64,000 nucleotides of DNA from Clostridia bacterium. GTDB lineage: Bacteria; Bacillota; Clostridia; Oscillospirales; CAG-272. A model generated the notes under the pieces. The model had not been told where the DNA came from and made no database searches. It worked only from the letters and a program-made list of their open reading frames with translations. This document shows, piece by piece, positions 19,693-55,893 of this stretch (positions within the stretch are counted from its first letter, which is position 1; every line of letters starts with the position of its first letter). A program made the position numbers and the translations under genes. Where the stretch lies: assembly GCA_017410065.1 (NCBI GenBank), contig JAFQRL010000005.1:23536-87535 (forward strand), given 5' to 3'.

Positions 19693-19971
19693 AATCACGG
19701 CTCCGCCGTGTATATCATCAGCCCTTTGGGCTGTATATTTGCTATTCGTCGGTCGTACACGCCGAATAACGCAAGATACCGTTAAAAACGGTATGCATCA
19801 CGGCGAAAGCCTTGTATATCATCAGCTCTTTGAGCTGTATATTTGCTATTCGTCGGTCGTACACGCCGAATAACGCAAGATACCGTTAAAAACGGTATGC
19901 ATCACGGCATAGCCGTGTATATCATCAAGGCGAAAGCCTTGTATATCATCAGCCGCAGGCTGTATGGAATC
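19693..19971. repeat. Linker-plus-mini-hairpin array, family A, with two 68-bp modules
   Basis: TGTATATCATCA linkers and seven hairpins; identical 68-bp modules at 19732-19799 and 19836-19903. Confidence 0.9.
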
Positions 19972-20135
19972 CGTGCAATCCTCCGTCCTTTTCTGCTCGT
20001 GCCCGAAGGTGCTGTAACTCGGCAAATCTCCTCAATTTCCCGTAAGCATTGCCAACTTTCTCCTCAAAATATCCCTTTATCCTTTCATCAAAACTATGCA
20101 ATATATCACCTTTTGCCTCTTACTAGCCTAAAGTT

Positions 20136-22817
20136 CTATGCGTTTTGGTCGCTTATCATTTGTGCATCATCGCGAACATTCGCTTTCTTCAAAAAGGCCT
20201 CGTTCCAACGGCGAACAACTCTGTTGCAAACAACATATTGCAAAGACTTGATTATTCTTGATGGATAATACATCTGATGATTATTAAGCAAATCAATATC
20301 AATCAAGGGTTGCTCTACTTTTTTATGAGCCATCTTCGTTGTTGATCCGTTAGATTGTAGCGTTTGTAATTCACCCAAACCCAAACTGATATTATAAGCT
20401 TCTTCTAAATCAGGACGATGTTTTTGTAACAGTTTTCCAACTGTTTTGTATACAGATCTCACTCCCATATACGGAGAATAATAAGGTGTTGCTTCACCGT
20501 TGAACGGATTCAAATAGATGTGCGAATAAAAATCTATATCAACAATACATCCGTGAATGTTTCCCACACCACCAAACCGTTTCACTTCATTAGCAATATC
20601 CTGCAATGCTCTTTGATAAGGTTCCAAAAACCGCTCTATCGCAGCACAGTAGCTCGGCAAGTTTTCGTAATAATACTCAATGTCTTGGTTATCCGCAACT
20701 CGTGTATATCCGCCCTCCAATATGTAAAGCTTTTCTTTACTACTTGGTTTAAATAAAAACATATAATATCCGAATCGTTTCAGCATATAAATAGATCCCT
20801 TTTGGTTGCAACCATAAGATAATATCCCTTTTGCGATATTAAATTCGCGATATTCGTTCGAGGAAATTAAATGTATGCCGTCCAAAAGGCTATCAAACAT
20901 CTCATATGAGTTGTCGATTGTGAAAGATTTCAAATTTAATTTTCTTGCTTTATAACCAATCTGGTTGTCAGCTAAAACAACTGCACCATCATCGTCAGTA
21001 TAGGCTTTATTTATATGGTCGTGCCCGCACACATATATCCAATTTTTATTGAGTAATTGACTCGTCCAATCTTTCGGTTGCATATGAGTAAGCACTACAA
21101 GGTTTTTATCCGATGCAACGGATGAAATCTTTTTATATAATTTCTCGAACCTTTTCGATAGATCGCGCTCACTCTCTCTTCTTGTTACAGCATCTTTATA
21201 TAAGCCACAAGTAGAGTTATAGCGTGAGTTAAGACCTGCAAATCCCGTTCCTCCAAATACTGCCAGACTGGACATTTTGATAGCTTCCCTGAGAACTTCA
21301 TTTGATATATTCAATAAATCGTTTTCAGTTAGAACAACATTATACACATTTTTATAGTGCAAAAAAAGCGAATTGTTTAAAAGAAATATTTTGTTCCGTG
21401 CGGAATATCTGACTTGATCAACGTGCTGATATTTTGTTACTATTTCGTCGATTGCAAGAGTGTTTCCTTCTTCATCATAGCAGTCCCAAAGCTCGTGGTT
21501 TCCTAGAGTGTAAATGATTTTTCCTCTCCACTTATTTGACAAATTTGATATAAAAATGTCCACCAGCTTTTTTGAACAAGCTACATCTCCCGCGATCATA
21601 AGTGTTGCAGTATTATCAGGGCAACTTGTAATAATTTCTTGCACCTTTTGATTTATACATTCTTCGAGTTCATCATCGGAAAGTTTAACGTCAAACAATT
21701 CAAACTGATGTTCTAGATGAATATCGGATATGTAATAAATCAATCTATTCGTTTCATCACTGTTTGAAAAATCATATGCTACCACAGAATTCGTGTCTAA
21801 TGCATCATTTGAATTTTGCGCTTCGGGCAAAGCGCAGCGTTCACGGTTGATAAAATTGCCTCTTTGGACCTTGGTCTCCAAATGCTTTATAGCTTTTTCG
21901 GAAAGACTTTTGTAATGTGCCTCCCCAAAATCCGGTTTACTGTTGCGAACTATATTATCCCAACGAATAATTGTATTAGCAGGAATATGCAGCATTAGTT
22001 TATTCAAGAAATCGGTGTTTTCCCTAATGGCAACGGGTATCGAACAAAAATCTTTAAAAGAAAATTTATCCGCTATTTTTTCGATAAAACCCAAACACAT
22101 ATTGAGGTTTTTATATTTTGATGGAATATATTGAAATGCATTTATGTTTTCTTTAAAAATCTGATTGCATTTTTCTTTGTTCAAAAAAGACTTTGGAATC
22201 ATTTTTAATGCCTCAAGATAAACAGAAATTGCAATGTCAACCAAATCAGAATTGACAAATTCCTCTGGAACAAATTCAATTGCTCTACCATCCAAACTCA
22301 CAGCCTTTTTGCATAATTTTTCGTTAATAAATTCTTTTGTCACAAATTTTAGACAGCAGGGTGTGTAAGCAACAGCCTCTTCAATCAACTCTTTGGTTAT
22401 TAATCTGCGCGGAATATGATTAATCGGGTGCGAATAAACATCATTAAATTTCTGTCTAACCGCAACAAAAGCAAGTTCTTCATCGATTAGACTTTTGTCA
22501 ACATATTCAATTGCTTTACCATTTTTCAAAACGGCGGTAAAACATACTTTTTTTGTTTTAAGTTTTTCTGGGATAAAACGAAGATCTGAAGCACTTCTTG
22601 AAACGACTATGCAACACAACTCCTCGGTTAAAAACCGGGTAGAAATGTGTTTAAACTCTACGCTATTTTCTGTAATGTATCTATGAACGTCTTCTGCCGT
22701 CTGTTCCAACTTTGGAATTATTTTTTTATTCGGACGGCGTTTGTTAATATATTCTTCTTCAAATTTTGAAATATGCACCGAAAGAGTATTTATAACAATA
22801 GAATTTTCGTTTTTCAT
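20136..22817 (-). CDS. AT-rich 893-aa protein: N-terminal DUF4116-like repeats, calcineurin-like metallophosphoesterase, unknown C-terminal domain
   Basis: Repeats such as AVSLDGRAIEFVPEEF; motifs ISDIHLE, IAGDV, LGNHE, LTH, CGHDH. Confidence 0.8.
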   Translation of the reverse strand: MKNENSIVINTLSVHISKFEEEYINKRRPNKKIIPKLEQTAEDVHRYITENSVEFKHISTRFLTEELCCIVVSRSASDLRFIPEKLKTKKVCFTAVLKNGKAIEYVDKSLIDEELAFVAVRQKFNDVYSHPINHIPRRLITKELIEEAVAYTPCCLKFVTKEFINEKLCKKAVSLDGRAIEFVPEEFVNSDLVDIAISVYLEALKMIPKSFLNKEKCNQIFKENINAFQYIPSKYKNLNMCLGFIEKIADKFSFKDFCSIPVAIRENTDFLNKLMLHIPANTIIRWDNIVRNSKPDFGEAHYKSLSEKAIKHLETKVQRGNFINRERCALPEAQNSNDALDTNSVVAYDFSNSDETNRLIYYISDIHLEHQFELFDVKLSDDELEECINQKVQEIITSCPDNTATLMIAGDVACSKKLVDIFISNLSNKWRGKIIYTLGNHELWDCYDEEGNTLAIDEIVTKYQHVDQVRYSARNKIFLLNNSLFLHYKNVYNVVLTENDLLNISNEVLREAIKMSSLAVFGGTGFAGLNSRYNSTCGLYKDAVTRRESERDLSKRFEKLYKKISSVASDKNLVVLTHMQPKDWTSQLLNKNWIYVCGHDHINKAYTDDDGAVVLADNQIGYKARKLNLKSFTIDNSYEMFDSLLDGIHLISSNEYREFNIAKGILSYGCNQKGSIYMLKRFGYYMFLFKPSSKEKLYILEGGYTRVADNQDIEYYYENLPSYCAAIERFLEPYQRALQDIANEVKRFGGVGNIHGCIVDIDFYSHIYLNPFNGEATPYYSPYMGVRSVYKTVGKLLQKHRPDLEEAYNISLGLGELQTLQSNGSTTKMAHKKVEQPLIDIDLLNNHQMYYPSRIIKSLQYVVCNRVVRRWNEAFLKKANVRDDAQMISDQNA

Positions 22818-22961
22818 ATATGCTCCAAATTTTGAATTTTATTTGTACTCTATTGTCAAAAACAGCCAAAGTCCACATAAAAACAAAAGGCAACAGCCAC
22901 GAATCTGCTTTCGATTCCGGCTGCCGCCCTTGTTTCTCAAAACGGCTTATGCCGCCAAAGA

Positions 22962-23231
22962 TTAATTCTTCTCTCCGAATTCGCTTTCAACAAGCGTTGC
23001 AAGTCCTTCAATAGCCGCGGACTCATCCTGACCGTCTGCGATAAGGGTGATCTCGGTTCCCTTGGAGATACCAAGAGAAAGAACGCCAAGAAGGCTCTTC
23101 GCATTCACACGGCAGTCGTCCTTCTCAACCCATATAGAGCTCTTGAAGCAATTTGCCTTCTGAACGAAAAAGGTTGCGGGTCTCGCGTGAAGACCAACGC
23201 TATTTGAAATAGTTACGTTACGAGTAATCAT
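22962..23231 (-). CDS. ptsH: Phosphocarrier protein HPr
   Basis: GLHARPA (His15) and NAKSLLGVLSL (Ser46) motifs. Confidence 0.93.
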   Translation of the reverse strand: MITRNVTISNSVGLHARPATFFVQKANCFKSSIWVEKDDCRVNAKSLLGVLSLGISKGTEITLIADGQDESAAIEGLATLVESEFGEKN

Positions 23232-23403
23232 AATGCACTCTCCTCGTGTTCATTTAGAACTTTATCATATCAAGTATACCAAATTAAGCATTAAAAATCA
23301 ATAGTTTTTCGGAAAAACTCCGTTAAACTTTTTTAATTGAAATTGACTTTTTTTAGTAATTATGCATAAAAATCTACAAATTATTATGAATTATGCATAA
23401 AAT

Positions 23404-25239
23404 TCAGCGCAGATCTATGTCTATTGCGGAGAAATCCACGTCTCGGGTGTCCTCATAATAGAGGGTCCTGTCGTCAACCTCCTTTTTCGCTACCCTCAGC
23501 ATCGCGCTTCCGATACCGAACACGCAGAAGAAAAGATAGAAGGAGGTGCCCTGCGACCAAATATACTCGGTCGCACCAAAAGAGATAAGAGCAAAGGTCG
23601 CCGCCGCAGTGTACGGAGCAAGCGAGCCCATCTCGGTCTGCTTAAGATATATCCCGTAGCTCGCCCTGTGCCTTATGCGCACCATAAATATCAGGGCAAG
23701 AATAACCAAGGCAAAAACGCCTGCCTCAAGCCCAAGCTCGATAAAAATGTTTTGAGAATTTGTGTAGCCGAAGATGCCCTGCTTTGCCATCTCCTCCGCA
23801 AAGCTCTGCTCTCCCATACCTGCGCCAAACCAGATGTTTTCCTTAAAGGCAAGGATGGATGCGCTCCACACCTCGCGAAGCTCCGCCGTACCGTCAAAGC
23901 CGGGGATGTACCGAGCCACCGCCTCTGCCACGCCGTCGGGAATAAGCATTATTGAATATGGCACAAGAGCAAGAATAATTGCAACAGGTGCCGACGCCCA
24001 TCCAAGCCGCGTTGCAAAATACATAGCACCGCCCAGCACAAGCGCGAGAATAGCAAAGCTCTCTCCCGTGAGAAGGAGTGCCACCGTATTAAGCGCCGCA
24101 ACCGAGCCGTAAAGCACGGAGAGCGCGCCCGAGGTATGCTTTGCAAGTGCCACCGCAAAAACGATGGAAACGATAAGGAATATAGCGCATTCCGCCCGCG
24201 ACGCGAAGGTGGAGGAGAAATTCAGCTCTCCGCTAAAGGGACCCTCCGCCGCAATGGCGAAAATGAAGGTGTAAAGAGAATATGCCGATGCGGGAATAGA
24301 TGAAATAACCAGCGCGTTAAGCGAGCACTCCGCAAGGCGGCGGTTGGTTATAAGATTGCCCGAAAGGGTATAGCCAAGTGCCATCGCGATCATCACAAGC
24401 GAGCTCAAAAAGGACTCCGTTCCCTTCATAAATATGCCGCTCACAAGGAAGCTGACCGCAAGAAGCCCGATGAGCAGATCGTATTGCTCAAAGAAAATAA
24501 CTCTCTTGCCGCAAACCACCTTTCTGATAAAGGAGATCACCGTCAGCAAGGCAAGTGCCGAAAAAACCGCATCCGAATAAGGAATAAGCCTGATATAAGG
24601 AAGTGCCATCAGGGACAGCAGGAAGGTGCTTTCGGGGGATAGGAAGGCAAGAAATATAATGAGCAGAGCAACCACCGACACCCCGACTATCCAGGAGGGA
24701 ATGATAAATCCAAGCCCGCCGAGCACAGCTCCAACGATAAGCAGCACCGCAAAGGGTATGGGCTTCGTTTTCTCCGAGGAATGAGGCCTCTTTATGCAGA
24801 AGAACTCAAAGCAGATGAAATCCACCACCCTGTTGCCCTGAAGCACCGCCGCAAGCGGCTTATCCGAGAACAGAAACGGCAAAGCTATAAGCACAGCACT
24901 TATTCCAACGAACACCGAATATCCGCCGTTTTCAACGGGGATGGAGAAATAATCTATAAGAAAATAAGCAAGGAAGGTGATCGCGCCGTAAGCGAGGAGC
25001 CCCGCACCGTAGGCGTTTGAGGCGGTGAAGGAAAGCATATCTGTTATTCTGTTTCCAAAGCTAACAGATCTTTTCAGCACGGCTCCGCCGCTTCGCGTTA
25101 CAGACCCCGAATAGCTCCTTGAGAAAAATCTCTTGCCGCCCGAGGATTTTATTCCGTGCTTTTTATCGCTTTCGTATCCGTCAAGAAAATCAAAAAACGA
25201 TGATTTTGCCAAGTCGCACCACACCCCTTTCTTCTTCAA
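23404..25239 (-). CDS. O-antigen ligase-like polytopic membrane protein
   Basis: Many hydrophobic segments; REVWSASI...WFGAGMG and NIFIELGLEAGV resemble the Wzy_C region; start uncertain. Confidence 0.65.
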   Translation of the reverse strand: MKKKGVWCDLAKSSFFDFLDGYESDKKHGIKSSGGKRFFSRSYSGSVTRSGGAVLKRSVSFGNRITDMLSFTASNAYGAGLLAYGAITFLAYFLIDYFSIPVENGGYSVFVGISAVLIALPFLFSDKPLAAVLQGNRVVDFICFEFFCIKRPHSSEKTKPIPFAVLLIVGAVLGGLGFIIPSWIVGVSVVALLIIFLAFLSPESTFLLSLMALPYIRLIPYSDAVFSALALLTVISFIRKVVCGKRVIFFEQYDLLIGLLAVSFLVSGIFMKGTESFLSSLVMIAMALGYTLSGNLITNRRLAECSLNALVISSIPASAYSLYTFIFAIAAEGPFSGELNFSSTFASRAECAIFLIVSIVFAVALAKHTSGALSVLYGSVAALNTVALLLTGESFAILALVLGGAMYFATRLGWASAPVAIILALVPYSIMLIPDGVAEAVARYIPGFDGTAELREVWSASILAFKENIWFGAGMGEQSFAEEMAKQGIFGYTNSQNIFIELGLEAGVFALVILALIFMVRIRHRASYGIYLKQTEMGSLAPYTAAATFALISFGATEYIWSQGTSFYLFFCVFGIGSAMLRVAKKEVDDRTLYYEDTRDVDFSAIDIDLR

Positions 25240-25281
25240 AATTCAAATAAATATGTGTAAATGTAAATAATTGTTAGTATT

Positions 25282-26037
25282 TTATTGATTTTCAGCCGAT
25301 CTTTTGCGCCTTTTCTTTTCCTTCGGCTTCAAGGATTCTTCAATCTCGGGATGAGAGAGGAGCATATCTGGCCTGCGCTCCTTCGTTATGCGCACAGCCT
25401 CCTCCAGCCTCCATCGCTCGATTTTCTTATGGTCTCCCGAAAGAAGCACCTCGGGCACCTCTCTGCCCATAAACTCTCTCGGCTTTGTGTATTGAGGGTA
25501 TTCCAGAATGCCCGATGCGACCGACTCGCCCTCATAGCATTCGCTCGATGCAAGCACGCCCTCCTTAAGCCTTGCCACCGCGTCAATAACGATACAAGCG
25601 GGTATCTCTCCGCCTGTGACAACGTAATCTCCGATAGAGATCTCCTCGTCAACTATCTCGTCAAGCACCCTTTGATCAACTCCCTCGTAATGGCCGCAAA
25701 GGAAAATGAGATTATCATATTCCGCAAGCTCGCGCGCCACCTCGTGAGAGAAGATCCTTCCCTTGGGAGACATATAAATGACCCTTGTTCTCTCCCCCTC
25801 GGGAATAGACGAGATAACGCTCTTATAGCAATCGTAAATAGGCTGGCAGGTCATCACCATACCAACGCCGCCGCCATAGGGAGTATCGTCCGTTTTTCTG
25901 TGCTTGTCGGTGGAAAAATCTCTTATATTATGGCACTTAACGCTGATAATTCCCGCCGTCTGTGCTCTGCCGATTATGCTCTCCGAGAGCACGCCCTCGC
26001 AAAGCGCGGGAAAGAGTGTTAATATATCAAACCTCAT
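25282..26037 (-). CDS. trmD: tRNA (guanine-N1)-methyltransferase
   Basis: DDTPYGGGVGMV, LCGHYEGVDQR, SIGDYVVTGGEI, LEYPQYTKP, VPEVLLSGDH. Confidence 0.97.
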   Translation of the reverse strand: MRFDILTLFPALCEGVLSESIIGRAQTAGIISVKCHNIRDFSTDKHRKTDDTPYGGGVGMVMTCQPIYDCYKSVISSIPEGERTRVIYMSPKGRIFSHEVARELAEYDNLIFLCGHYEGVDQRVLDEIVDEEISIGDYVVTGGEIPACIVIDAVARLKEGVLASSECYEGESVASGILEYPQYTKPREFMGREVPEVLLSGDHKKIERWRLEEAVRITKERRPDMLLSHPEIEESLKPKEKKRRKRSAENQ

Positions 26038-26626
26038 CAGCCTCATCAAAGAAGCCCGAAATGGGAAGCACCCTCATTCCGTTCTCCTCGCTAATCTCCT
26101 TTATAAATTCGGGCACGTCGGGAAGCAGTACCTCGCCGCCCTTGTGCTTCACGGTGTATATTCTTCTGCCCGCAACGTCGGATACCTCGGATATCTCCCC
26201 GAGCCTCTCGCCGCTTTCCGCGTGATACACAGGCAGACCTATCATATCAGCTATGAGCATTGCCCCCTTTGCCACGGGAATATCCTCTCTGGCAAGATAG
26301 ATCGCTCTGCCGCGCAGAGCTATGGCATCCTCTCGGCTGTCTATTCCCTCAACCGTCATTATAACGAATTGACCCGAAACCGATGCTGAAAGCACCTTGT
26401 ATTCAACAAAGGTCTCAATAGGCGCACCGTTACGTGAGCCGCTCGGCGAAGCAATATCCCTCGCACCGATAGCCCCGCAGGGGCGAAGATAGCCGCGCTC
26501 GGCAAAATATATTCGCTTTTGCTTCGCAAGTACCGAAGGACTGTCGCAAAAATGCTCAACCTTCAGCGCACCGCGAACTCCGTGAGCCGTGCAGATCCTT
26601 CCTGCCTCAAGATATTCCGCCTTCAT
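26027..26626 (-). CDS. rimM: Ribosome maturation factor RimM with an apparent ~25-aa insertion
   Basis: HGVRGALKV, GIDSREDAIALRG, and PRC barrel DMIGLPVY...LLPDVPEFI; overlaps trmD; GGAGG precedes the ATG at 26626. Confidence 0.9.
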   Translation of the reverse strand: MKAEYLEAGRICTAHGVRGALKVEHFCDSPSVLAKQKRIYFAERGYLRPCGAIGARDIASPSGSRNGAPIETFVEYKVLSASVSGQFVIMTVEGIDSREDAIALRGRAIYLAREDIPVAKGAMLIADMIGLPVYHAESGERLGEISEVSDVAGRRIYTVKHKGGEVLLPDVPEFIKEISEENGMRVLPISGFFDEADEV

Positions 26627-26734
26627 ACGCCCTCCATATCCTCGCATAAAATTATCGTCTTAAAACCGTCTCTTTATATTCTACCACATATTTAAAATAA
26701 AATCAAGCCTTCTTTTTTGCGCGTCAGCGCGCGC

Positions 26735-26892
26735 GGTAGCGCAACTTTCGCTTCGCGAAAACTTCACTTGTGCAAAGCACAAACTTCACCTGCGCGTCAG
26801 CGCAACTTTTTGCTATTGCAAAAAACTTCACTGCAAAGCAACTTCACTTGTGCATAGCACAAACTTCACTTTCGCTTCGCGAAAACTTCACC
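26735..26892. repeat. Linker-plus-mini-hairpin array, family C
   Basis: ACTTCAC at 26761, 26783, 26825, 26841, 26863, 26885, separated by hairpins such as TTGTGC-AAA-GCACAA and TTTCGC-TTC-GCGAAA. Confidence 0.88.
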
Positions 26893-27045
26893 AAAAAAAG
26901 ACCCCGAAGCAAGAGAAAAAAACGCTTTTCCTTTTTCCTGCCTCAGGGTCTGTTTTCTATTCAGTTATAAATTTGGCTTTGCCAAGCGTTTAGATTTTGC
27001 TGTTCGCAAAAGCTATGAATTCGCAGAGCGAACGTTATGATATGA

Positions 27046-28059
27046 TTAATTCACGTCGCAGAGGCAGAGATCAGCGTCCTCGCCGTTGACGATAACGTGG
27101 CACTCAACAAGATCCACCGCGTCGCTGTCGGAGGAATCTGTGAGAAGCTCCATAAAGTTATCAACGGTGATAAGAGTGTCGCCGTAGTAGCAGTCGGTGA
27201 AGGAGATATTAAGGGGAGTGCCGTCCTCGAAGCCGTCCGCATTAACGCCGAGCTTGAAGCCCTCCTCAAACTTACAGCCAACGAAGGTGCTGTCGTCGTA
27301 CATTCTCAGGTAGGAGTAATCGGTCTCGCCCTGACCGAAGGTCACGTTCTCAAAGTATGCAAGCCCAAGACCCGAATAGCTGCTCCAGCCGTAAAGGGTC
27401 GAATCGTAAACGTAAAGGTTGTTGCCCTCGCCGCCGCCAATGTTGATAGCATAAGTGCCGCCGTCTACGCCGACATTCCTGAGAATAAGATTATCCTCAA
27501 GCTTATAGGTGCCTGAGCTGCCTGTGCCGATACCGCGAGGTCCGCCGTAAAGTCTCACGTTGGAGACCGTTCCGCCAAGGGTGGTGATCATACAGTTGTA
27601 ATAGCTGTTCTCAATTGCCGTGCCGTCTACCGTGAGCCCCGCGCCGTCAAAGATACCGCCGCGCATAAGCACGTTCTCGCTTACGTTGATATTAGCTCCG
27701 AGAAGAATACTCTCGCCTGCGCCAAGTGCCGCCGCAAGCTGCTCCTCGTTGATGACCGCCTCGGGTGCCGCAGTCCTCGTCACAGAGCTTGAGCCGTCGT
27801 TATAGCAAATGGTGAATACGGTGTATACCTTACCCGTCGCGTCAGCCTCATAGCCAACCTTAACGTCGGAAACGCTCTTTGCCTTAAGAGAATTGAGCCA
27901 TTCGCGCTCGGTTCCCTCAAAGCCGTTCGCAACGGCAACCTCGTATGCCGAATCTCCGTCCTCATAGCTATGTAAATTAACAGTACAGCTCGTGAGAGCT
28001 CCTATGGCAACCACCGAGGTTATTGCAAGTGCCAAAATTTTAGAAATCGCTTTTTTCAT
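27046..28059 (-). CDS. Secreted lipoprotein with a GDSAYEVAVANGFEGTEREWL motif and a probable beta-helix domain
   Basis: MKKAISK...ALTSC lipobox (start moved from 28179 to 28059); Gly/Asn-rich beta-strand pattern. Confidence 0.7.
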   Translation of the reverse strand: MKKAISKILALAITSVVAIGALTSCTVNLHSYEDGDSAYEVAVANGFEGTEREWLNSLKAKSVSDVKVGYEADATGKVYTVFTICYNDGSSSVTRTAAPEAVINEEQLAAALGAGESILLGANINVSENVLMRGGIFDGAGLTVDGTAIENSYYNCMITTLGGTVSNVRLYGGPRGIGTGSSGTYKLEDNLILRNVGVDGGTYAINIGGGEGNNLYVYDSTLYGWSSYSGLGLAYFENVTFGQGETDYSYLRMYDDSTFVGCKFEEGFKLGVNADGFEDGTPLNISFTDCYYGDTLITVDNFMELLTDSSDSDAVDLVECHVIVNGEDADLCLCDVN

Positions 28060-34558: not shown

Positions 34559-34685
34559 TAATCTGCGCATAGCGCAGTATGGAATCCGTGCTCTGCACGG
34601 TATGGCATCAGCCCCTTTTTGCGAGCGAGAAGCGAGCAAAATCAAGGCGCAAGCCTTGTATATCATCAGCCGCAGGCTGCATACT
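34559..34685. repeat. Family A array variant
   Basis: Linkers GTATGGAATC, GTATGGCATCA, TGTATATCATCA with hairpins TGCGC-ATA-GCGCA, CGTGC-TCT-GCACG, AGGC-GCAA-GCCT, GCC-GCA-GGC. Confidence 0.8.
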
Positions 34686-34897
34686 TGTCATCCTGAGCCT
34701 GTCGAAGTTTTGTGAGCGAGAAGCAAGCAAAACCGAGGAGCAAAGCGACGAAGGGATCTCGCCCGTCAACCCTCTCGGGATAAAGAAAACTAACGTCAAA
34801 TCAGCTTGCCGAGCTGCATCTATCCGTCCGAGATCCGACCGCGAGCGGTCGCCCTTCGGGTTTCGGCTTCGGGCTCCGCCCTCCGCTCAAGATGACA
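34686..34897. mobile_element. MITE-like palindromic element (family E), 212 bp
   Basis: Terminal inverted repeats TGTCATCCTGAG and CTCAAGATGACA; the right part recurs at 55596-55670. Confidence 0.65.
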
Positions 34898-35224
34898 GCG
34901 GACGGTGCGTACCTTGCAGGATAAACCAAACTAACTCCAAATATGATATTTTGACAATAATTATTTACATTTTCGCTCAAATTTCACATTTTTCACCTAC
35001 ATCCCCCCTTTTATCCATCTGCCGTTTTATTCTCTGATTTTTTCGTTTTTTCCATCTTTTTTCTCTTGTTTTTCCCTCGCGAATACCCGCAAAATTTGTA
35101 AAAAAATTTGGGCAAATTCATTCAGTTTTACAATTAGTATAAATTTGCGAATAAAAATGTTCACAAATGTGATTTATAATTATTTTAGGAAAGTTTTTAA
35201 ATCTATAAAAAAGAGAGAAAAAAG

Positions 35225-43212: not shown

Positions 43213-43241
43213 TGCGTTGGGGTTTATTTTTTTGCGTCCTA

Positions 43242-44572: not shown

Positions 44573-44888
44573 ATCGCGGCGCAGCCTTGCATATCACCAA
44601 CCTCGCAGAGGTTGTATATCATCAACACGCAAGTGTTGTATATCATCCGCCAACGGCGGTATATCATCAGCTCTCCGAGCTGTATATTTGCTATTCGTCG
44701 GTCGTACACGCCGAATAACGCAAGATACCGTTAAAAACGGTATGCATCAAGGCGAAAGCCTTGCATATCATCAACCTCAAAGAGGTTGTATATCACCAAC
44801 CTCGCAGAGGTTGCATATCATCAGCTCTCCGAGCTGCATATCATCACGGCACAGCCGTGTATATCACCAACCTCGCAGAGGTTGCATC
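44572..44888. repeat. Longest family A linker-plus-mini-hairpin array
   Basis: Eleven hairpins on TGYATATCAYCA linkers, plus one 68-bp module at 44681-44748. Confidence 0.92.
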
Positions 44889-48131: not shown

Positions 48132-48138
48132 AAAGCAA

Positions 48139-48160
48139 AAGCCGCACCGCATTTGCGGCT
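48139..48160. terminator. Hairpin after carB
   Basis: AAGCCGCA...TGCGGCTT; the T tract is weak. Confidence 0.45.
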
Positions 48161-48219
48161 TGTGGAAAGGATGGGGGAAGATCACCCAAAATAAAAACTG
48201 TCGGAAAGGAAGACCCACA

Positions 48220-48951
48220 GTGAAGGACATTATATTTAAGGTCATATCAAACGAGCTGATAGCAAAAAACACCTACGAATGTAAGCTCTCGGGAGATATC
48301 TCGGATATCACAGCCTCGGGTCAATTCGTTAATATAAAGCTTGACGGCTTCTACCTTCGCAGACCCATCTCGGTGTGCGACGCGGAGGGCGGAGTGCTCA
48401 CCATCATCTATAAGGTGGTCGGCGAGGGCACGGAGGCTATGTCGAGGGCAGAGGCGGGCACAGAGTGGCTCACCCTCACAGGTCTCGGCAACGGCTACAA
48501 CACATCCCTCTCGGGAGATAAGCCTCTGCTTATCGGCGGCGGCGCGGGAGTACCCCCTATGTATATGCTTTGCAAAAAGCTTATCTCGGAGGGCAAGGCT
48601 CCCACAGTCATTCTCGGCTTCAACACCGAAAATGAAGTATTTTACAAGGAAAAGTTTGAAGAGCTCGGCGCAAAGGTCATAGTCGCCACCGCAGACGGCT
48701 CGGTGGGTGTGCGCGGCTTTGTCACCGATGCTATGGCAGGTCTTGACTACACCTACTTCTACACCTGCGGTCCCGAGCCAATGCTCAAGGCTGTGTATAA
48801 CGCAAGCGCGACCTCGGGTCAGTTCAGCTTTGAGGAGCGTATGGGCTGTGGCTTCGGCGCTTGTATGGGCTGCTCCTGCAAAACGAAATACGGCAATAAG
48901 CGCATCTGCCGCGACGGCCCTGTTCTTGTAAAGGAGGAAATTATCTGGTAG
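48220..48951 (+). CDS. pyrK: Dihydroorotate dehydrogenase electron transfer subunit
   Basis: LRRPISV, GGGAGVPP, TCGPEPM, CGFGACMGC...C; GTG start after AAAGGA. Confidence 0.92.
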   Translation: MKDIIFKVISNELIAKNTYECKLSGDISDITASGQFVNIKLDGFYLRRPISVCDAEGGVLTIIYKVVGEGTEAMSRAEAGTEWLTLTGLGNGYNTSLSGDKPLLIGGGAGVPPMYMLCKKLISEGKAPTVILGFNTENEVFYKEKFEELGAKVIVATADGSVGVRGFVTDAMAGLDYTYFYTCGPEPMLKAVYNASATSGQFSFEERMGCGFGACMGCSCKTKYGNKRICRDGPVLVKEEIIW

Positions 48952-48993
48952 CTTTAAGGAAGCCTCGGCTTCTTCTGCCGTGATAAAACAAGT

Positions 48994-49905
48994 ATGATAA
49001 ACACAAAAGTCAATTTATGCGGAGTGGAGCTGGATAACCCCATTATCCCCGCAAGCGGCACCTTCGGCTTCGGCTATGAATTTGCCGAGCTCTACGACAT
49101 CAATATGCTTGGCTCATTCTCCTTTAAGGGCACGACCCTTGAGCCTCGCTTCGGCAACCCCACCCCGAGAATTGCGGAGTGCTCGTCGGGTATGCTTAAC
49201 GCGGTCGGACTTCAAAACCCGGGCGTTGATAAGGTCATCTCCGAGGAGCTCCCCAAGCTTCGCCGCGTGTTCCATAAGCCCGTTATGGCAAACGTCTCAG
49301 GCTTCTCGGTCCACGAATACGTTGAGACCGTAAGACGGCTTGACGGAGAGGGAGATATCGGCTGGTTTGAGGTCAACATATCCTGCCCCAACGTACACGG
49401 CGGCGGTATGAGCTTCGGCACCTCCCCCGAGCTCGCCGAGCAGGTAACGAGAGCGGTGAGAGAGGTCACCAAAAAGCCTATCATCATAAAGCTCTCCCCC
49501 AACGTCACAGACATCGTCTCCATCGCAAAGGCATGCGAGGCAGGCGGAGCAGACGGCGTGAGCCTTATCAATACCCTTATGGGTATGAGAATAGACCTTA
49601 AGAAAAGACGCCCCATTATCGCAAATAAAACAGGCGGCTTCTCGGGCCCCGCTATCAAGCCCGTCGCCGTGAGAATGATATATCAGGTCTACGAGGCAGT
49701 TAAAATTCCTATCGTCGGTATGGGCGGCGTCGCCACCGCCGAGGACGTCATCGAGCTTATGCTCGCAGGTGCCACCGCAGTCGAGGTCGGCGCAGAAAAC
49801 CTCGTCAACCCCTACGCCTGCCGCGATATCATCGAAGCACTCCCAAAAGCAATGGAGAAATACGGAATAGAATCGATCGACAATATCATCGGCGCGGCGC
49901 ACTAG
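48994..49905 (+). CDS. pyrD: Dihydroorotate dehydrogenase 1B catalytic subunit
   Basis: ASGTFG, LNAVGLQNPG, NISCPN, KLSPNV, INT, GGFSGPAIKP. Confidence 0.95.
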   Translation: MINTKVNLCGVELDNPIIPASGTFGFGYEFAELYDINMLGSFSFKGTTLEPRFGNPTPRIAECSSGMLNAVGLQNPGVDKVISEELPKLRRVFHKPVMANVSGFSVHEYVETVRRLDGEGDIGWFEVNISCPNVHGGGMSFGTSPELAEQVTRAVREVTKKPIIIKLSPNVTDIVSIAKACEAGGADGVSLINTLMGMRIDLKKRRPIIANKTGGFSGPAIKPVAVRMIYQVYEAVKIPIVGMGGVATAEDVIELMLAGATAVEVGAENLVNPYACRDIIEALPKAMEKYGIESIDNIIGAAH

Positions 49906-49924
49906 CTTTTTCGTGATTTTAGGC

Positions 49925-50142
49925 GAGGACACTTCGGTCGAGAACGACCTCACTTTTCGCCGAATTTACCGTCTTGCCGTATTCATATACTCCTTGCGAG
50001 CATCGCCGATACTCGGCGGCACTACGTGCATCTTCGGTGAGACCGAAGTGCTCGCGGAGCAACCTGCGTCAGCCTTGCTTGCAAGCGAGCTTGCAGACAA
50101 GTCTTGACTTGGTTATATGGCGGCGCAGTAAATTACGACGAA
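49925..50142 (-). repeat. Family D element loaded with cargo 1 (left arm of the inverted repeat)
   Basis: Reverse complement reads TCGTCGTAATTT...TATA[124 bp]TATATGAATAC...AAATTCGGCGA. Confidence 0.85.
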
Positions 50143-50334
50143 CCTCATCCAAAAATCCCTGAAAAAGAGAATTTAAAACGAAATAATTTTTCCGCGAATA
50201 AAAGAAAAATTAGAAAAGGAAAGGATTTTCCAATTATTTTCAGATGCGATTTGTTGTAATTCGAGGTGCCGCTTGTATACAACAGCATAATTAAAAACAA
50301 TAATTAAAAAAATAAAAAGCAGTATTTTTTGATG

Positions 50335-50563
50335 GATTTGGAGCGAGAATCGTCGTAATTTTGTGAGCCGACGTATAACCAAGTCAAGACTTGTCTGCAA
50401 GCTCGCTTGCAAGCAAGGCTGACGCAGGTTGCTCCGCGAGCACTTCGGTCTCACCGAAGATGCACGTAGTGCCGCCGAGTATCGGCGATGCTCGCAAGGA
50501 GTATATGAATACAGCAAGACGGGAAATTCGGCGATAGACGAAGTCGGTCTCGCCCGAAGACGC
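50335..50563 (+). repeat. Family D element loaded with cargo 1 (right arm)
   Basis: 50374-50511 is the exact reverse complement of 49980-50117. Confidence 0.9.
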
Positions 50564-50585
50564 AAAAAAGACGGAGGTAATTAAG

Positions 50586-51281
50586 ATGGGTAAGGACGTC
50601 ATCATCGCCTGCGACTTCGCAAGCGCAGAGGAAACATTCGCTTTCCTCGATAAATTTGAGGGCAAGAAGCCCTTCGTTAAGATCGGAATGGAGCTCTACT
50701 ATGCAGAGGGCCCCGAAATCGTTCGTGAGATAAAGAAAAGAGGACACAAGATCTTCCTCGACCTTAAGCTTCACGATATCCCCAACACAGTAAAAAAGGG
50801 TATGGCAGTGCTCTCTCGCCTGGACGTTGATATGACAAACCTTCACGCCTCGGGCACCAAGGCAATGATGGAGGCAGCTCTTGAGGGTCTCACAAGACCC
50901 GACGGCACACGCCCCATACTCATCGCCGTCACACAGCTCACCTCCACGAGCCAGGAGAGAATGGAGTCAGACCTTCTTATCAAAGCACCCATAGACGAGG
51001 TAGTTATGCACTACGCTTCCTGCGCAAAGGAAGCAGGGCTCGACGGCGTTGTTTGCTCTCCCCTTGAGGCAGGTAAGGTCCACGACAGATGCGGCAAGAG
51101 CTTTATAACCGTTACCCCCGGTGTAAGATTTGCAGACGGCAATAAGGGCGACCAGGTCAGAGTTATGACCCCCGAGGAGGCAAAGAAGATCGGCTCCGAC
51201 TATATCGTTGTGGGCAGACCCATCACCGCCGCGGAGGATCCTGTTGCCGCATACAACCGCTGCTGCAAGGAATTTCTGTAA
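50586..51281 (+). CDS. pyrF: Orotidine-5'-phosphate decarboxylase
   Basis: [37 protein letters not shown]. Confidence 0.96.
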
Positions 51282-51315
51282 TTTTCGGGTAGATCGCGGC
51301 TGGCGCGCACGCCGC

Positions 51316-51381
51316 CGTCTATCGCCGAATTTTCCGTCTTGCTTTATTCATATAAAGCGGCGCAGAAAATTACGACGATTC
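51316..51381 (-). repeat. Family D element, empty
   Basis: Reverse complement reads AATCGTCGTAATTTTCTGCGCCGCTTTATATGAATAAAGCAAGACGGAAAATTCGGCGATAGAC. Confidence 0.85.
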
Positions 51382-51518
51382 TACCTCGAAAATTCCTAGA
51401 AATTCAGAGTTTTAAGAGCTTTAATAAATTTGAATTTCAGCAAATCCCATCTAAAATTTATTAAAAATCGGACGGAATATCTGTAATTTTATAATTAAAT
51501 CACGAAAAGGACAAAGCT

Positions 51519-52169
51519 ATGCAATCTTATAAAAGAGAATTCATTACATTCCTTGAGAACGCGGGCGTTCTCAAGTTTGGAGACTTCACCGCAAAAAGCG
51601 GCAGAAAGATTCCCTATTTCATCAACGCAGGCGAGATCAAAACAGGCGATCAGATAGCGAAGCTCGGCGAGTTCTACGCAAAGAGCTATCTTGACAAGGT
51701 CGGCAATAAGCGTGCCGTCCTCTACGGCCCCGCATACAAGGGCATTTCCATCGCCGTTGCCACCTCCATCGGTCTCTCCAAGAGCGGACTTGACGTTCCA
51801 TTCTTCTTCAACAGAAAGGAAGCAAAGGACCACGGCGAGGGCGGCATCTTCGTTGGCTGTAAGCCAACCGAAGGCGAGGAGATCGTTATCGTTGAGGACG
51901 TTATCACCGCAGGCACCGCCATCCGCGAAAGTATGGAGATCCTCTCCTCCCTGGACGGCGCAAAGGTCATCGCAACCTTCGTTATGGTAGACAGAAAGGA
52001 AAAGGGCAAGGGCACAAAGTCCGCAATGGCAGAGGTCGGCGAGGAGTTCGGCTTCCCCGTCTATTCCGTCGTTGACGTCTACGACATCATCGAGTACCTC
52101 GAAGAAAACCCCGCCCACGCCGATGACGTCGCCCGCATCAAAAACTACCTCACCGTCTGGGGCGCCTGA
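51519..52169 (+). CDS. pyrE: Orotate phosphoribosyltransferase
   Basis: FTAKSGRKIPYF, GPAYKGI, RKEAKDHGEGG, VEDVITAGTA. Confidence 0.96.
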   Translation: MQSYKREFITFLENAGVLKFGDFTAKSGRKIPYFINAGEIKTGDQIAKLGEFYAKSYLDKVGNKRAVLYGPAYKGISIAVATSIGLSKSGLDVPFFFNRKEAKDHGEGGIFVGCKPTEGEEIVIVEDVITAGTAIRESMEILSSLDGAKVIATFVMVDRKEKGKGTKSAMAEVGEEFGFPVYSVVDVYDIIEYLEENPAHADDVARIKNYLTVWGA

Positions 52170-52202
52170 TCCAATCTGAACCAAATCCCACACCTACACA
52201 AA

Positions 52203-52390
52203 ACACAAATAATCAGCATTTTTTCAGATAATTTTGAGTTGAGAAGCCTCGCTCACCCAGCATCAACAGCTTTATAAAGCAACACAAAAAACACAAATAA
52301 GCAGCATTTTTCAGATAATTTTGAGTTGAGAAGCTTCGCCCACCCAGCATCAACAGCTTCATAAAGCAACACCAAAAACACAAATAAGCA
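52203..52390. repeat. Tandem ~87-bp duplication
   Basis: ACACAAATAA starts at 52203, 52291 and 52378; two nearly identical units. Confidence 0.88.
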
Positions 52391-52403
52391 GGTTTTTTCG
52401 ATG

Positions 52404-52504
52404 GATTTGGAGCGAGAATCGTCGTAATTTTCTGCGCCGCCGTATATGAATACGGCAAGACGGAAAATTCGGCGATAGACGAAGTCGATCTCGCCCGAAG
52501 ACGC
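52404..52504 (+). repeat. Family D element, empty
   Basis: Same core as 50335-50563 without the 124-bp cargo. Confidence 0.88.
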
Positions 52505-52523
52505 GAAAAAACAGGAGAATTTT

Positions 52524-53588
52524 ATGAGAAATTTAGTCAACATCCTCGACCTTTCCGTCGAAGAAATCGACGACCTTATCAAGACCGCCTCGGACATAAT
52601 AGACAACCCCGAGCTATACGTGAACACCTGCCGCGGCAAAATTCTCGGCACGCTCTTTTTTGAGCCGTCAACCAGAACGCGACTGAGCTTCACCTCTGCA
52701 ATGATGAGCCTTGGCGGCAACGTGCTCGGCTTCTCCCAGGCGGCAAGCTCGTCTATCTCCAAGGGCGAAACGGTGGCAGACACCATTCGTATGGTCAGCG
52801 CATACTCGGATATCATCGTTATGCGCCACCCCAAGGAGGGCGCGCCTGTTGTGGCATCGGGTGTCTCAAACGTGCCCATAATCAACGCAGGCGACGGCGG
52901 TCACTTCCACCCCACCCAGACCCTCACCGACCTGCTCACCATCAAAAAGAAAAAGGGTCGCTTCAACGACCTGACTGTTGGTATCTGCGGCGACCTTAAG
53001 TATGGGCGCACCGTCCATTCGCTTATCTCCGCCCTCTGCCGCTACGACAACGTGCGCTTTGTGCTGATCTCCCCCGAGGAGTTGAGACTTCCCGACTACG
53101 TTAAGGACGAATACCTTTTCGGCGGCGGCTGTGAGTACGTTGAAACCGACAACCTTGAACGCGCGATTCCCTCCCTCGATATCCTCTATATGACGAGAAT
53201 TCAGGCAGAACGCTTTGAATCCCGCGAGGAATATGAACGCCTTAAGGACTCCTATATCCTGAACGCGGAAAAGCTGGAGTGCGCAAAGGAGGACCTCTCA
53301 ATTCTCCATCCCCTCCCCCGTGTAAACGAGATCGACGTGGACGTGGACGACGACCCGAGAGCAGATTATTTCGACCAGGCAATGTACGGCAGATATATCC
53401 GAATGGCACTCATTCTTATGCTTCTTAAAACCAAGGGCGTTGAGGATAGCCGCTACCACGGAATAGAAAACCCTCGCCTCGTTTGCAAAAACCCCCATTG
53501 CATCTCCTCCTCCGAGCGCGGTGTCAAGCTCCTCTTTGACGAGGAGAACCGTTGCATCTTCTGCGACCAAACCGCCGAGGAAAGATAA
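52524..53588 (+). CDS. pyrB: Aspartate carbamoyltransferase catalytic chain with a fused PyrI-like Zn domain
   Basis: [30 protein letters not shown]; C-terminal CKNPHC...CIFC. Confidence 0.95.
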
Positions 53589-53746
53589 TTAGCGATTACG
53601 TCGCCCCAAAATCTCCACCCTATAGTTATGTCGCTTTTCGGGAAAAGCTCCGCAAAAGCTTTAAAAATAATTATTGGTAAAAATACCGTATCGCAAGATA
53701 TCACTTTGAAAAAGGATGTTCTGTTAGTGTGACAACTACGCGAGAG

Positions 53747-53778
53747 GTATTCTGCGGTGTCACCTCGCAAGGGGTGAC
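53747..53778. terminator. Hairpin between convergent pyrB and trpB
   Basis: GGTGTCACC-TCGCAAGG-GGTGACACC followed by TTTT. Confidence 0.7.
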
Positions 53779-53882
53779 ACCTTTTGTTTTTAAAAAACAG
53801 CAGAACTCCAAGTTTAGCAGTGAAGCTAAAGCTGAAATTCCGCTGTTTTTTACATTATTTGCAAATAGTAATTTACATTTTA

Positions 53883-55112
53883 TTAGATTTTTTCGGGAAT
53901 AGGATAATTCTCTATAACGTAATCCATATCCTTATCGCCTCTGCCCGAAAGGCAGATAAGCACGGAGCCCTTGTCCATAGTTTTTGCAAGCTTCATACCG
54001 TAAGCTACCGCGTGGGAGCTTTCGATAGCGGGGATAATGCCTTCCAATCTTGCGAGGGTATAGAAGGCGTCGATGGTCTCCTCGTCGTTGATAACGTCAT
54101 ATTTAACTCTGCCGAGATCGCGAAGGAATGCGTGCTCGGGACCCGAGGAGGGATAGTCAAGACCGCTTGCAACCGAATAAACGGGAGCGGGCTCGCCGTT
54201 TTCGTCCTTAAGCATAATGCTGTTGAAGCCGTGCATTATGCCCTCCTCACCGTAGGTAAGGCTTGCGGCGTGGTCGCCAAGCTTTGCGCCTCTGCCGAGA
54301 GGCTCAACACCGTAAATATCAACGGGGTCATTAAGGAAGCCCGAGAACATACCCATCGCATTTGAGCCGCCGCCAACGCAAGCAACCACCGCGTCGGGAA
54401 GCTCGCCTGTCATAGAAACGAACTGCTCTCTTGCCTCAATACCGACAACGCTCTGGAAGTCTCTCACCATCATCGGGAAGGGGTGAGGGCCGAGAACCGA
54501 GCCGATGCAATAGATGGCATCCTTGTACTCTCTTGCATAAGCCGCAAACGCCGCGTCTACCGCCTCCTTAAGAGTAGCAAGACCGTGTGTCACCTCAACC
54601 ACGTTCGCGCCGAGGATCTTCATTCTCTCTACGTTGGGAGCCTGCTTTTTAATATCAACAGAGCCCATATAAATATCACATTCAAGACCGAAATAAGCCG
54701 CCGCAGTTGCAAGAGCAACACCGTGCTGACCCGCACCTGTTTCGGCAATGACCTTCTTCTTGCCCATATACTTCGCAAGAAGTGCCTCGCCCATACAGTG
54801 ATTAAGCTTGTGCGCGCCCGTGTGGTTCAGGTCCTCGCGCTTAACGTAAAGCTGAACGCCTGTGCCGATCTTATTGGAGAGCCTTTCAAGATGGGATATG
54901 GGAGTGGGTCTGCCCTGGAACTCCCTTCTGATCTTGCGAAGATCAGCAATAAATTTAGACGACTTGCAGATCGTCTGATAAGCGTCGGAGATCTCCTTCA
55001 TAGCCACCTGAAGCTCGGGAGAAATATATGCTCCGCCGTACTTGCCGAAGAAGCCCTCCTTTGAGGGATACTTCTTGAAATAAGTGTCAAAATTGATGCC
55101 GTTAAATTCCAT
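53883..55112 (-). CDS. trpB: Tryptophan synthase beta chain, stand-alone
   Basis: [55 protein letters not shown]. Confidence 0.93.
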
Positions 55113-55204
55113 TTTTCTTTCCTCTTTTCTTTTTTTCTTGCGTGTTATGCACGCGTCCTTTGCGTACTTCCCTGCGTTTTACGCATTTTTTCCGCCCGAG
55201 GAAT

Positions 55205-55465
55205 ATAAAAAGCCCCGAGCAATAATAGCTCGGGGCGAATAAATCCGCGGTGCCACCCGATTCGGGACAACGTCCCCTCATGTACTAAAGGGCAACGCCC
55301 CAACCATACATTGTGCAGATAACGGCTGCCTGCCGTCGAAGCCTACTCGCAAAGCTTTCGGTTCGCCCTCGAAAGTCCATTCACCAAAGCGCACTATACC
55401 GCAATCCCACCGCCTGCGGCTCTCTGTGTTAATAACACTATGGCTACTACTCTTTCTCATCGGTT
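55205..55465 (-). ncRNA. Trp-specific T-box riboswitch
   Basis: T-box GGGTGGCACCGCG (reverse complement of 55246-55258); terminator GCCCCGAGC...GCTCGGGGC-TTTTT; Stem I AGAGA and GGTGGGA elements; specifier GAA-TGG (TGG at 55377-55379). Confidence 0.92.
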
Positions 55466-55473
55466 ATGTGATG

Positions 55474-55502
55474 ATTTTACCACACCGCCGCGGCTTTGTC
55501 AA
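55474..55502 (-). promoter_or_regulatory. SigmaA promoter of the T-box/trpB leader
   Basis: Minus strand TTGACA-17 bp-TAAAAT with TG. Confidence 0.8.
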
Positions 55503-55595
55503 TACCTTTTTGAAAAATTTCCCGAAATCCCCCGAAAATTATTTTGGAAAATTCCCCGAATTTTCCTCTTGAAATATCCTCCAAAGCTTCGCTCT

Positions 55596-55670
55596 CCGTC
55601 CGAGATCCGACCGCCGGCGGTCGCCCTTCGGGTTTCGGCTTCGGGCTCCCGCCCTCCGCTCAAAATGACA
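55596..55670. repeat. Partial family E element (right end)
   Basis: Nearly identical to 34824-34897; ends GCTCAAAATGACA. Confidence 0.85.
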
Positions 55671-55697
55671 ACAGACGGAACGTGCCTCGTTTCTCAT

Positions 55698-55893
55698 AAT
55701 CAAGGCGCAAGCCTTGTATATCATCAGCTCTTTGAGCTGTATATCATCAAGGCGTAAGCCTTGTATATCATCAGCTCTTTGAGCTGTATATTTGCTATTC
55801 GTCGGTCGTACACGCCGAATAACGCAAGATACCGTTAAAAACGGTATGCATCGCGGCACAGCCGTGTATATCATCAGCCATTTGGGCTGCATC
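55698..55893. repeat. Family A array with one 68-bp module
   Basis: Six hairpins on TGTATATCATCA linkers; module at 55785-55852. Confidence 0.9.

Follow-up and report, generated by a model that had tools for sequence, protein, structure and literature searches.

A 57-nt double-hairpin module in hairpin arrays of a Clostridia bacterium: a probable miniature insertion element without target duplication

The window analysed here is a 64,000-nt stretch of contig JAFQRL010000005.1 (positions 23,536 to 87,535) from GCA_017410065.1, the genome of a Clostridia bacterium of the order Oscillospirales. Three family A arrays of the window, which lie upstream of uvrC, in the pyrC-carB spacer and upstream of a T-box leader, hold copies of a double-hairpin module, and it is this module, a 57-nt element in our delimitation, that concerns us (Table 1). 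Family A arrays have a simple grammar, in which a 10-nt linker of type A1 (GTATATCATC) or A2 (GTATGGAATC/GTATGGCATC) alternates with a hairpin of 9-15 nt taken from a small vocabulary. An initial annotation had described the module as a 68-bp unit in four identical copies, and had offered recent spread, gene conversion or strong selection on a functional sub-element as explanations of this identity.

Copies of the module and their boundaries

The 68-mer has exact matches at 19732, 19836, 44681 and 55785, all on the + strand, and no further match in the window at up to three mismatches (chance expectation 0). As the initial annotation had stated, each of these copies splits a GTATATCATC linker and comes after a GCYC-TYY-GRGC hairpin. 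The unit that is actually repeated, by contrast, is not the 68-mer, which consists of one T, GTATAT, 57 nt running from TTGC to GGTATG, and CATC; its 7 + 4 non-element bases include the 10 nt of the two linker halves. In the whole genome (2.37 Mb, 47 contigs), there are 14 copies of the 68-mer, of which 11 match at 68/68 and three at 67/68. The sole difference in the latter is the first flanking base, and the 57-nt element is identical in 14/14 copies, or in 91/91 copy pairs. All 14 copies lie within family A arrays and are oriented as the array; the GCYC-TYY-GRGC hairpin precedes the element in 11/14, and the other three are preceded by CGCTCAACGAGCG.

A covariance model of the element, built from 31 diverged relatives and run over the whole genome, recovers the same 14 copies at 77.5 bits each, together with three distant relatives of a longer form, two on contig C18 (35.5 bits) and one on contig C39 (21.7 bits), and nothing beyond these 14 + 3 copies at E<=1. 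The identity distribution is thus bimodal, with moderately diverged copies absent. A genome-wide search with the 68-mer, as the initial annotation had proposed, agrees with this, returning the 14 identical copies and none of intermediate divergence.

The boundaries of the element are exact. In-silico deletion of the 57 nt regenerates the 10-nt linker GTATATCATC (GTATAT^CATC) to the base, and the site most often occupied has a paralogue without the element, reading agctctttgagct GTATATCATC acggcacagccgt, at C7:44848-44973. Since the flanking T and C differ from the terminal bases of the element, the boundaries cannot be shifted, and the ends T^[TTGC...GGTATG]^C are unique. There is no target-site duplication, as excision regenerates the targets with zero duplicated bases, and there are no terminal inverted repeats, the ends TTGC and TATG being unrelated by inversion.

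Occupied linkers are also a distinct subset of the linkers available. After in-silico excision, 138 array linkers were counted genome-wide and 13 occupied ones were scored against them. All 13 are of the GTATATCATC type (background 69/138), all 13 come after a hairpin ending in GAGCT, GGGCT or GAGCG (background 27/138), and all 13 stand before ACGGC, AAGGC or GCGGC (background 32/138); among linkers preceded by GAGCT, 8/13 are occupied. Copy subsets share flanking sequence as well, a pattern which fits a target preference reaching into both neighbouring hairpins and, equally, exchange between arrays or between copies.

The hairpins around the element, which the initial annotation had called variable, do differ from one another; they come, however, from a small reusable vocabulary, and their turnover consists in the gain, loss and replacement of units, not in point mutation. 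Family A arrays additionally chain with two other repeat families into composite elements, namely family B (~120 nt, CCCTGTCATCCTGAGC...CTAACGTCAAATC, 10 copies) and family C (~90-110 nt, CTCTCCGTCCGAGATCCGACCGC...TTTCTCATAATC, about 8 copies). Such composites are seen in the window at 34686-34914 and 55592-55701 and on contigs C4, C7, C13, C22, C24, C43 and C44. The T-box leader near the fourth copy (RF00230, 105 bits; window 55228-55469, minus strand) lies upstream of a PALP-family gene, and the element-bearing array is ~230 nt upstream of the leader.

Table 1. Element copies and family A arrays of the window, and PF05635 genes of the same genome (window positions, except where a contig is named)
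Feature	Position	Strand	Basis or content
Element copy 1 (57 nt)	19739..19795	+	Exact match and fold; hairpin 1 = 19739-19774, hairpin 2 = 19776-19794
Element copy 2	19843..19899	+	Exact match; same array as copy 1, 104 nt downstream
Element copy 3	44688..44744	+	Exact match; pyrC-carB spacer array
Element copy 4	55792..55848	+	Exact match; array upstream of T-box leader
Host family A array 1	19697..19971	+	Linkers GTATATCATC, the last being GTATGGAATC; short variable hairpins; between uvrC and strain-specific 893-aa gene
Host family A array 2	44575..44888	+	Between pyrC and carB
Host family A array 3	55702..55888	+	Repeat family C copy at 55592-55701 directly before
Element-free family A array	34577..34667	+	Followed by family B (34686-34802) and family C (34820-34914) copies
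PF05635 genes, own genome	C15:6865, C28:5984, C5:146920, C24:35458, C33:931, C37:5559, C15:29157		

Structure, relatives and insertion targets

The two-hairpin fold given in the initial annotation is the minimum-energy structure on both strands, with a + strand folding energy of -12.7 kcal/mol as DNA (z -3.1) and -18.8 kcal/mol as RNA (z -2.5). The hairpins span element positions 1-36 and 38-56. As they start and end at the element termini, folding of the strand puts the flanking T and C side by side, and hairpins that abut the termini in this way match the geometry of elements handled as single-stranded DNA. In a set of 38 unique hairpin-1 sequences, 31/38 have T-A as the outer pair and 7/38 have C-G, inner pair 4 is C-G in 34/38 and T-A in 4/38, and inner pair 6 is T-A in 27, G-C in 4 and C-G in 2, with a mismatch in 5 (T.C in four, including the variant of the window genome, and C.A in one); in metagenome copies, inner pair 6 can also be A-T and the outer stem CAGC/GCTG. 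Hairpin 2 has a base of ATACCG/CGGTAT or ATGCCG/CGGCAT, and its distal stem and loop are free to vary while stem pairing is kept. These compensatory changes indicate that both hairpins are under structural constraint. No G.T intermediates were seen, in a sample too small to decide between DNA and RNA. An apparent third RNA stem, suggested by covariation of a closing helix (CTGG/CCAG, CTAGG/CCTAG, GTGG/CCAC), was rejected, its pairs being the T-stems of different tRNA fragments.

Relatives of the element were sought by BLAST, by scanning one genome of each species for an exact pattern and by a metagenome scan. The copies found, of 78-96% identity, are confined to this genus and come solely from metagenome-assembled genomes (MAGs) of Clostridia from ruminant and other guts, which carry the labels Eubacteriales, Acutalibacteraceae or 'uncultured Ruminococcus'. 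Within the genus, 28/61 genomes have the conserved 3' motif GCAAKATRCCG-N3-9-CGGYATGC, against 2/398 other genomes sampled from the order, and the reversed pattern, used as a control, gave 0 and 1 matches in the two scans. Phage and plasmid records and IMG/VR viral contigs contain nothing that matches the element, and the exact variant of the window genome was not found in JGI metagenomes. Nor does any Rfam family cover the module, at gathering or E-value thresholds, in the window or in 19 loci. An ar9 match (27 bits) is a chance fit of two hairpins, and YrlA matches (28-40 bits) cover the 3' half of one tRNA together with the 5' half of the next and are not meaningful.

In these relatives most copies lie outside family A arrays, a possibility the initial annotation had raised, and they have the same termini there. 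One target is the T-loop of tRNAs, GGATT^CGAACC when read on the antisense strand; at locus L054, three tandem partial tRNA copies carry the element, and the reading after excision, CTGGATTCGAACCAG, can be set against CTGGACTCGAACCAG in the adjacent intact tRNA. A second target, AAT^CAG, is on the 3' side of the anticodon arm in copies of tRNA-Lys and tRNA-Asn. At locus L028 the interrupted tRNA-Asn/tRNA-Lys copies are 200-300 nt from intact genes, with 38-45 nt of identical flank, and excision restores the anticodon arms. Further targets are the variable loop (GATGT^CAC, locus L067), Gut-1-like arrays (GATGAAAT^CGCACGCGATGAAATCC) and other hairpin loops (CAGAGT^CGGAGTCTG and GGGTAT^CGCATACCC). 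In a set of 65 distinct flank pairs, T stands at position -1 in 62 and A at position -2 in 44, all 65 have a purine at +2, and positions -3 to -5 are degenerate; the C at +1 was fixed by the search pattern, and an unconstrained listing has C in nearly all copies. The common target of the elements is thus approximately R-W-A-T^C-R. Orientation relative to flanking genes is mixed, with copies found sense, antisense and between convergent or divergent genes, which speaks against a cis-acting role in mRNA.

The commoner form in the genus is a long one of 92-96 nt, which has the same termini, an enlarged hairpin-1 interior and GTTCCGC as a conserved motif. Of its three copies in the window genome, two lie at the end of contig C18, in the T-loop of tRNA-Lys(TTT) copies. 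At C18:15535-15829, the tRNA-Lys(TTT) copies form a tandem pair, each split in the T-loop (TTCG^ATT; CGGAGAAT^CGAACTCCG) by a 95-nt antisense long form, and in both the 3' acceptor strand breaks off after its first 3 nt. ARAGORN reports 29 tRNA genes for this bin and no intact tRNA-Lys or tRNA-Asn. Locus L028 (positions 1-800 of JAFTKM010000018.1, a MAG from roe-deer caecum) has an intact tRNA-Asn and tRNA-Lys, followed by a partial tRNA-Asn and a full-length tRNA-Lys copy; the latter contains the element in its anticodon arm and a separate T-loop insert of ~115 nt (TTCGAA[CGTCCGAG...GCTAAC]CGGTTC). This family of T-loop inserts recurs in L071 and L005.

Recency, mobilisation and rival explanations

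The identity of the 14 copies can be compared with that of other repeats in the genome and in the genus. Comparison families from the same composite arrays show 92.5-99% (family B) and 91-99% (family C) identity between copies, or 1-8% divergence overall. Other genomes of the genus have 3-7 short-form copies each, with a mean pairwise identity of 0.75-0.94, and most of them have identical copies only where the copies share a common context. In a conspecific strain, whose flanking DNA is about 96-99% identical and could be followed over 46 kb, the element is present at pyrC-carB and absent from the other three window sites (1 copy vs 4). Copies 1 and 2 are missing from its orthologous uvrC-upstream array, and copy 4 is missing from the array orthologous to the one upstream of the T-box (conspecific contig L137). 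Copy 3 is present in all conspecific assemblies examined, being identical in L085, L087 and L088 and differing in L089 by one single-nucleotide polymorphism (SNP) in the hairpin-2 loop. At each locus the strains differ in their neighbouring hairpin units too; taking exactly two in-phase units out of L089 gives L087, and elsewhere A2 blocks stand in place of A1 blocks. Such unit deletions and block replacements indicate that array turnover is far faster than point substitution.

The uvrC-upstream array also edges a segment of ~2.9 kb (window 19972-22885) that carries the gene for an 893-aa protein (20136-22817, minus strand) with DUF4116 repeats and a calcineurin-like metallophosphoesterase domain, for which PADLOC has no match. 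The segment is absent from the conspecific strain, where the array directly meets the HPr-side flank.

In our reading, the 68-mer is probably a miniature, non-autonomous insertion element that enters DNA without duplicating its target, together with the split halves of a linker, and it would have been amplified recently in one preferred linker context. The element would move as, or be recognised as, folded single-stranded DNA, with the enzyme supplied in trans. A single variant, the one with the T.C mismatch in hairpin 1, was probably amplified very recently in the lineage of this strain. Its landing context would be the GTATATCATC linker where a GAGCT/GGGCT/GAGCG hairpin foot precedes and an RMGGC hairpin follows, and the exchange of multi-unit blocks between arrays, along with recombination between identical copies, probably helped its spread and shuffled its flanks. 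The element behaves as selfish DNA, and we ascribe no cellular function to it. Among the explanations first offered, recent spread is borne out by the identity of all copy pairs, by the greater divergence of families B and C and of copies in the genus, and by the strain that lacks three window copies. Gene conversion or block exchange between arrays, to which the mosaic sharing of 30-49 nt flanks points, is a probable contributor. Selection on a functional sub-element of the array is not supported, as the element is separable from the array, occurs outside family A in relatives, is polymorphic between strains and has mixed orientation relative to genes.

Candidate enzymes were sought in this genome and across the genus. 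Y1_Tnp (PF01797) has 0 matches in this genome; it is found in 19/61 genomes of the genus, and its overlap with element-positive genomes (6 vs 8.7 expected) shows no positive association. The DEDD transposase of IS110/IS1111 (PF01548) is above cut-off in 4/61 genomes of the genus and not in this one. Reverse transcriptase (PF00078), which a repeat mobilised by a retroelement of the group II intron, DGR or retron type would need, has 0 candidates in this genome and matches in 10/61 genomes of the genus. Y1/IS200, IS110 and reverse transcriptase were accordingly rejected as mobilisers, on absence from the genome or non-association in the genus. For the IS91/ISCR Y2 transposase (PF04986), 0/61 genomes matched and control genomes were equally silent. 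A 1462-aa open reading frame on contig C41 has a sub-threshold 24.8-bit match to the IS110 DEDD (RuvC-like) domain at C41:29351-29596, and may encode a large RuvC-containing nuclease.

A different protein family is common in the genus. PF05635 (23S_rRNA_IVP, an Avd-like four-helix bundle) is found in 54/61 genomes and is encoded by seven genes in this genome. Ahead of each of four of them lies a mirrored mini-hairpin array that has an individual linker (GATGAAATC, GTGAAAT, TGAAAT or GTGAAGTT types), and two of these four come directly after tRNA-Leu(GAG) or tRNA-Ser(GCT) and a terminator. Hairpin arrays ahead of PF05635 genes tie array families to a protein family, although nothing was found that links the PF05635 protein to movement of the 57-nt element. 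Mirrored arrays, forward and then inverted, also occur with a family A linker (G[TC]ATATCATC), starting after the T-run 'tttttatcc', at C15:27962-28088, C47:50422-50603, C21:7094-7130 and C46:69738-69770. They resemble the tRNA-linked cassette form, a possible source of the dispersed one-directional family A arrays.

Several observations weigh against a mobile element. None of the enzymes sought offers itself, with Y1_Tnp absent here and unassociated in the genus, IS110 rare and reverse transcriptase absent here. In no pair of strains is the element the only difference. Loci that lack it have different array units as well, and for them block replacement agrees with the data no less than direct insertion does. 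Exact flanking sequence is common to subsets of copies, over 30-49 nt on the 5' side or 31-34 nt on the 3' side. Conservation between species extends to the hairpin-1 loop (GTCGGACA-like) and to the junction bases, and this could mean a function beyond mobility. Copy identity, finally, is read from assembled contigs alone, and several copies are near contig ends, where assembly is fragile at these repeats.

Three alternatives were weighed. The module may have no mobility of its own and be a long unit type of the family A vocabulary, spread and kept identical by ectopic recombination, gene conversion and linker-mediated slippage, that is, by concerted evolution. Conspecific arrays do differ by whole units and blocks, as L087 and L089 and the replacement of A1 by A2 blocks illustrate, the same four-unit block is found at different loci, a 5' flank of 30-46 nt is common to six or seven copies and a 3' flank of 31-34 nt to pairs, and the module is confined to one flank context in this genome. 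We nevertheless consider concerted evolution alone unlikely, because the element of relatives sits with the same termini in tRNA loops, Gut-1-like arrays and hairpins that have no family A homology. The pairs of copies with a common 5' flank are moreover not those with a common 3' flank, which makes the sharing mosaic, and ~12% of positions differ between neighbouring hairpins, against 0% in the module.

Purifying selection on a structured nucleic acid, be it a small RNA, a cis-regulatory RNA motif or a protein-binding site in DNA or single-stranded DNA (for example for a recombinase or for Avd-like PF05635 proteins), would account for the compensatory changes that preserve both hairpins and for the conservation of the hairpin-1 loop and junction sequences across species. 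Hairpin 1 is similar to a 13-8-13 recombinase-type site, and the many PF05635 genes of the genus, with their own hairpin arrays ahead, would supply a candidate partner. This explanation appears distinctly improbable to us: no Rfam family matches the module, it has no constant orientation to flanking genes, the conspecific strain does without three of the four window copies, the element family is present in only 28/61 genomes of the genus, and copies in relatives are mostly within decaying tRNA fragments. Selection alone also does not explain identity at loop positions that are free to vary between species. An assembly artefact, in which divergent repeats were collapsed to a consensus in a short-read metagenome bin, is brought to mind by a bin of 47 contigs in which many copies have a contig end at a distance of 0.5-5 kb and contig breaks fall at arrays. 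It is extremely unlikely, given that 57 nt is normally below the read or assembly k-mer length (contig names show k141), that flanks are distinct for each copy, that one contig holds two copies 104 nt apart, and that three other metagenome assemblies reproduce the element at pyrC-carB, one of them with a real SNP.

Returning to the insertion element that we favour, a wider proposal can be made tentatively, and we hold it to be possible though doubtful. The 57-nt module and its relatives of 92-96 nt might together form an undescribed class of mobile elements, mini-insertions free of duplication and of terminal repeats that home to T^C in single-stranded loops or linkers of hairpin-rich DNA, above all to the tRNA T-loop, which is universally conserved (GGATT^CGAACC antisense), and then to array linkers. 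Their machinery would be none of Y1/HUH, IS110 or reverse transcriptase and is possibly tied to the multi-copy, Avd-like PF05635 cassettes that have their own arrays behind tRNA genes.

Significance and comparison with known systems

If the favoured reading is true, the element is among the smallest in bacteria for which exact insertion can be demonstrated in several unrelated targets, and, as none of the known enzyme families for duplication-free insertion is available here, it offers a route to a new DNA-handling activity. It provides a defined substrate (57 nt, two hairpins, base-exact termini) and a defined target (RWAT^CR in a loop or linker), and its patchy distribution in the genus is suited to phyletic profiling for a partner gene. 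Part of the heterogeneity of 'Gut-1-type' arrays in uncultured gut Clostridia would be explained, these arrays being landing pads for nested mini-elements. For annotation, a warning would follow: where these genomes have tRNA-like fragments with large 'loops', they would be products of insertion and not novel RNAs. Should array-block conversion alone be responsible, the case would be one of ordinary, though unusually clean, concerted evolution.

The arrays themselves have two counterparts among described repeats. The Gut-1 RNA motif is an orphan motif without known function (Rfam RF01706; Weinberg et al. 2010, PMC2864571). Gut-1-type arrays, made of the linker GATGAAATC and mini-hairpins, host the element in relatives, and family A has the same grammar of linker plus hairpin. 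RF01706 is nevertheless silent on the module and on the family A array (window 19640-20000, E<=10), and its best scores in relatives, 29 and 40 bits, are under the 50-bit gathering threshold. REP/BIME repeats with RAYT in Enterobacteria and Pseudomonas resemble the host arrays, not the module, in being intergenic arrays of short hairpins, homogeneous within a genome, that host other insertion elements. Family A differs in having variable hairpins around a constant linker, the reverse of REP, and in the absence of a RAYT/Y1 gene. For the module, a REP/BIME identity was rejected, since this requires an imperfect palindrome of ~35 nt with 5' GTAG, and a RAYT, whereas the module has two different hairpins and no RAYT/Y1.

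Rickettsia palindromic elements, pneumococcal BOX and RUP and the Correia elements of Neisseria likewise multiply within a lineage as short non-coding repeats with secondary structure, and BOX shares a modular build with the composite A/B/C arrays. In Correia and RUP, DDE transposases account for terminal inverted repeats and TA duplications. To our knowledge, none of these four has been reported to insert into tRNA-type loops. A miniature inverted-repeat element of the DDE type (IS630/Tc1, IS5 and similar) was rejected, as terminal inverted repeats and target-site duplication are both lacking. Inspection also disposes of an integron attC site, because attC has R''/R' boxes (RYYYAAC...GTTRRRY) and recombines at G^TT, whereas the joined ends here, G|TTGCTA, misfit GTTRRRY, the target is T^C and no cassette genes flank the copies, and of a hammerhead-type three-way junction, an archaeal bulge-helix-bulge intron and group I/II introns, for which size, core motifs or the antisense orientation in tRNA fragments misfit.

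Closer parallels concern form and behaviour. The double-hairpin elements of Allomyces mitochondrial DNA, reportedly described by Paquin, Laforest and Lang in 2000, and mitochondrial GC clusters are tens of nucleotides long, consist of two adjacent hairpins, occur in intergenic DNA and in structural RNA genes, and show evidence of mobility without a known enzyme; 'double-hairpin element' is a term in current use in the literature. The analogy is one of form only, as they are organellar and unrelated in sequence. Palindrome-associated transposable elements (PATEs), miniature derivatives of IS200/IS605 that are mobilised by Y1 HUH enzymes, are very short, have neither target duplication nor terminal inverted repeats, carry a hairpin at each end and insert in a specific orientation beside a short motif, and like them the element is probably handled as folded single-stranded DNA. 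They differ in that the Y1 transposase, the defining test, is absent from this genome, in that the hairpins of the element abut its termini while those of PATEs are subterminal, and in that its target appears to be a loose RWAT^CR where PATEs have a fixed left-side tetra- or pentanucleotide. By analogy, then, the element appears closest in behaviour to IS200/IS605-derived PATEs, while its form recalls the mitochondrial double-hairpin elements.

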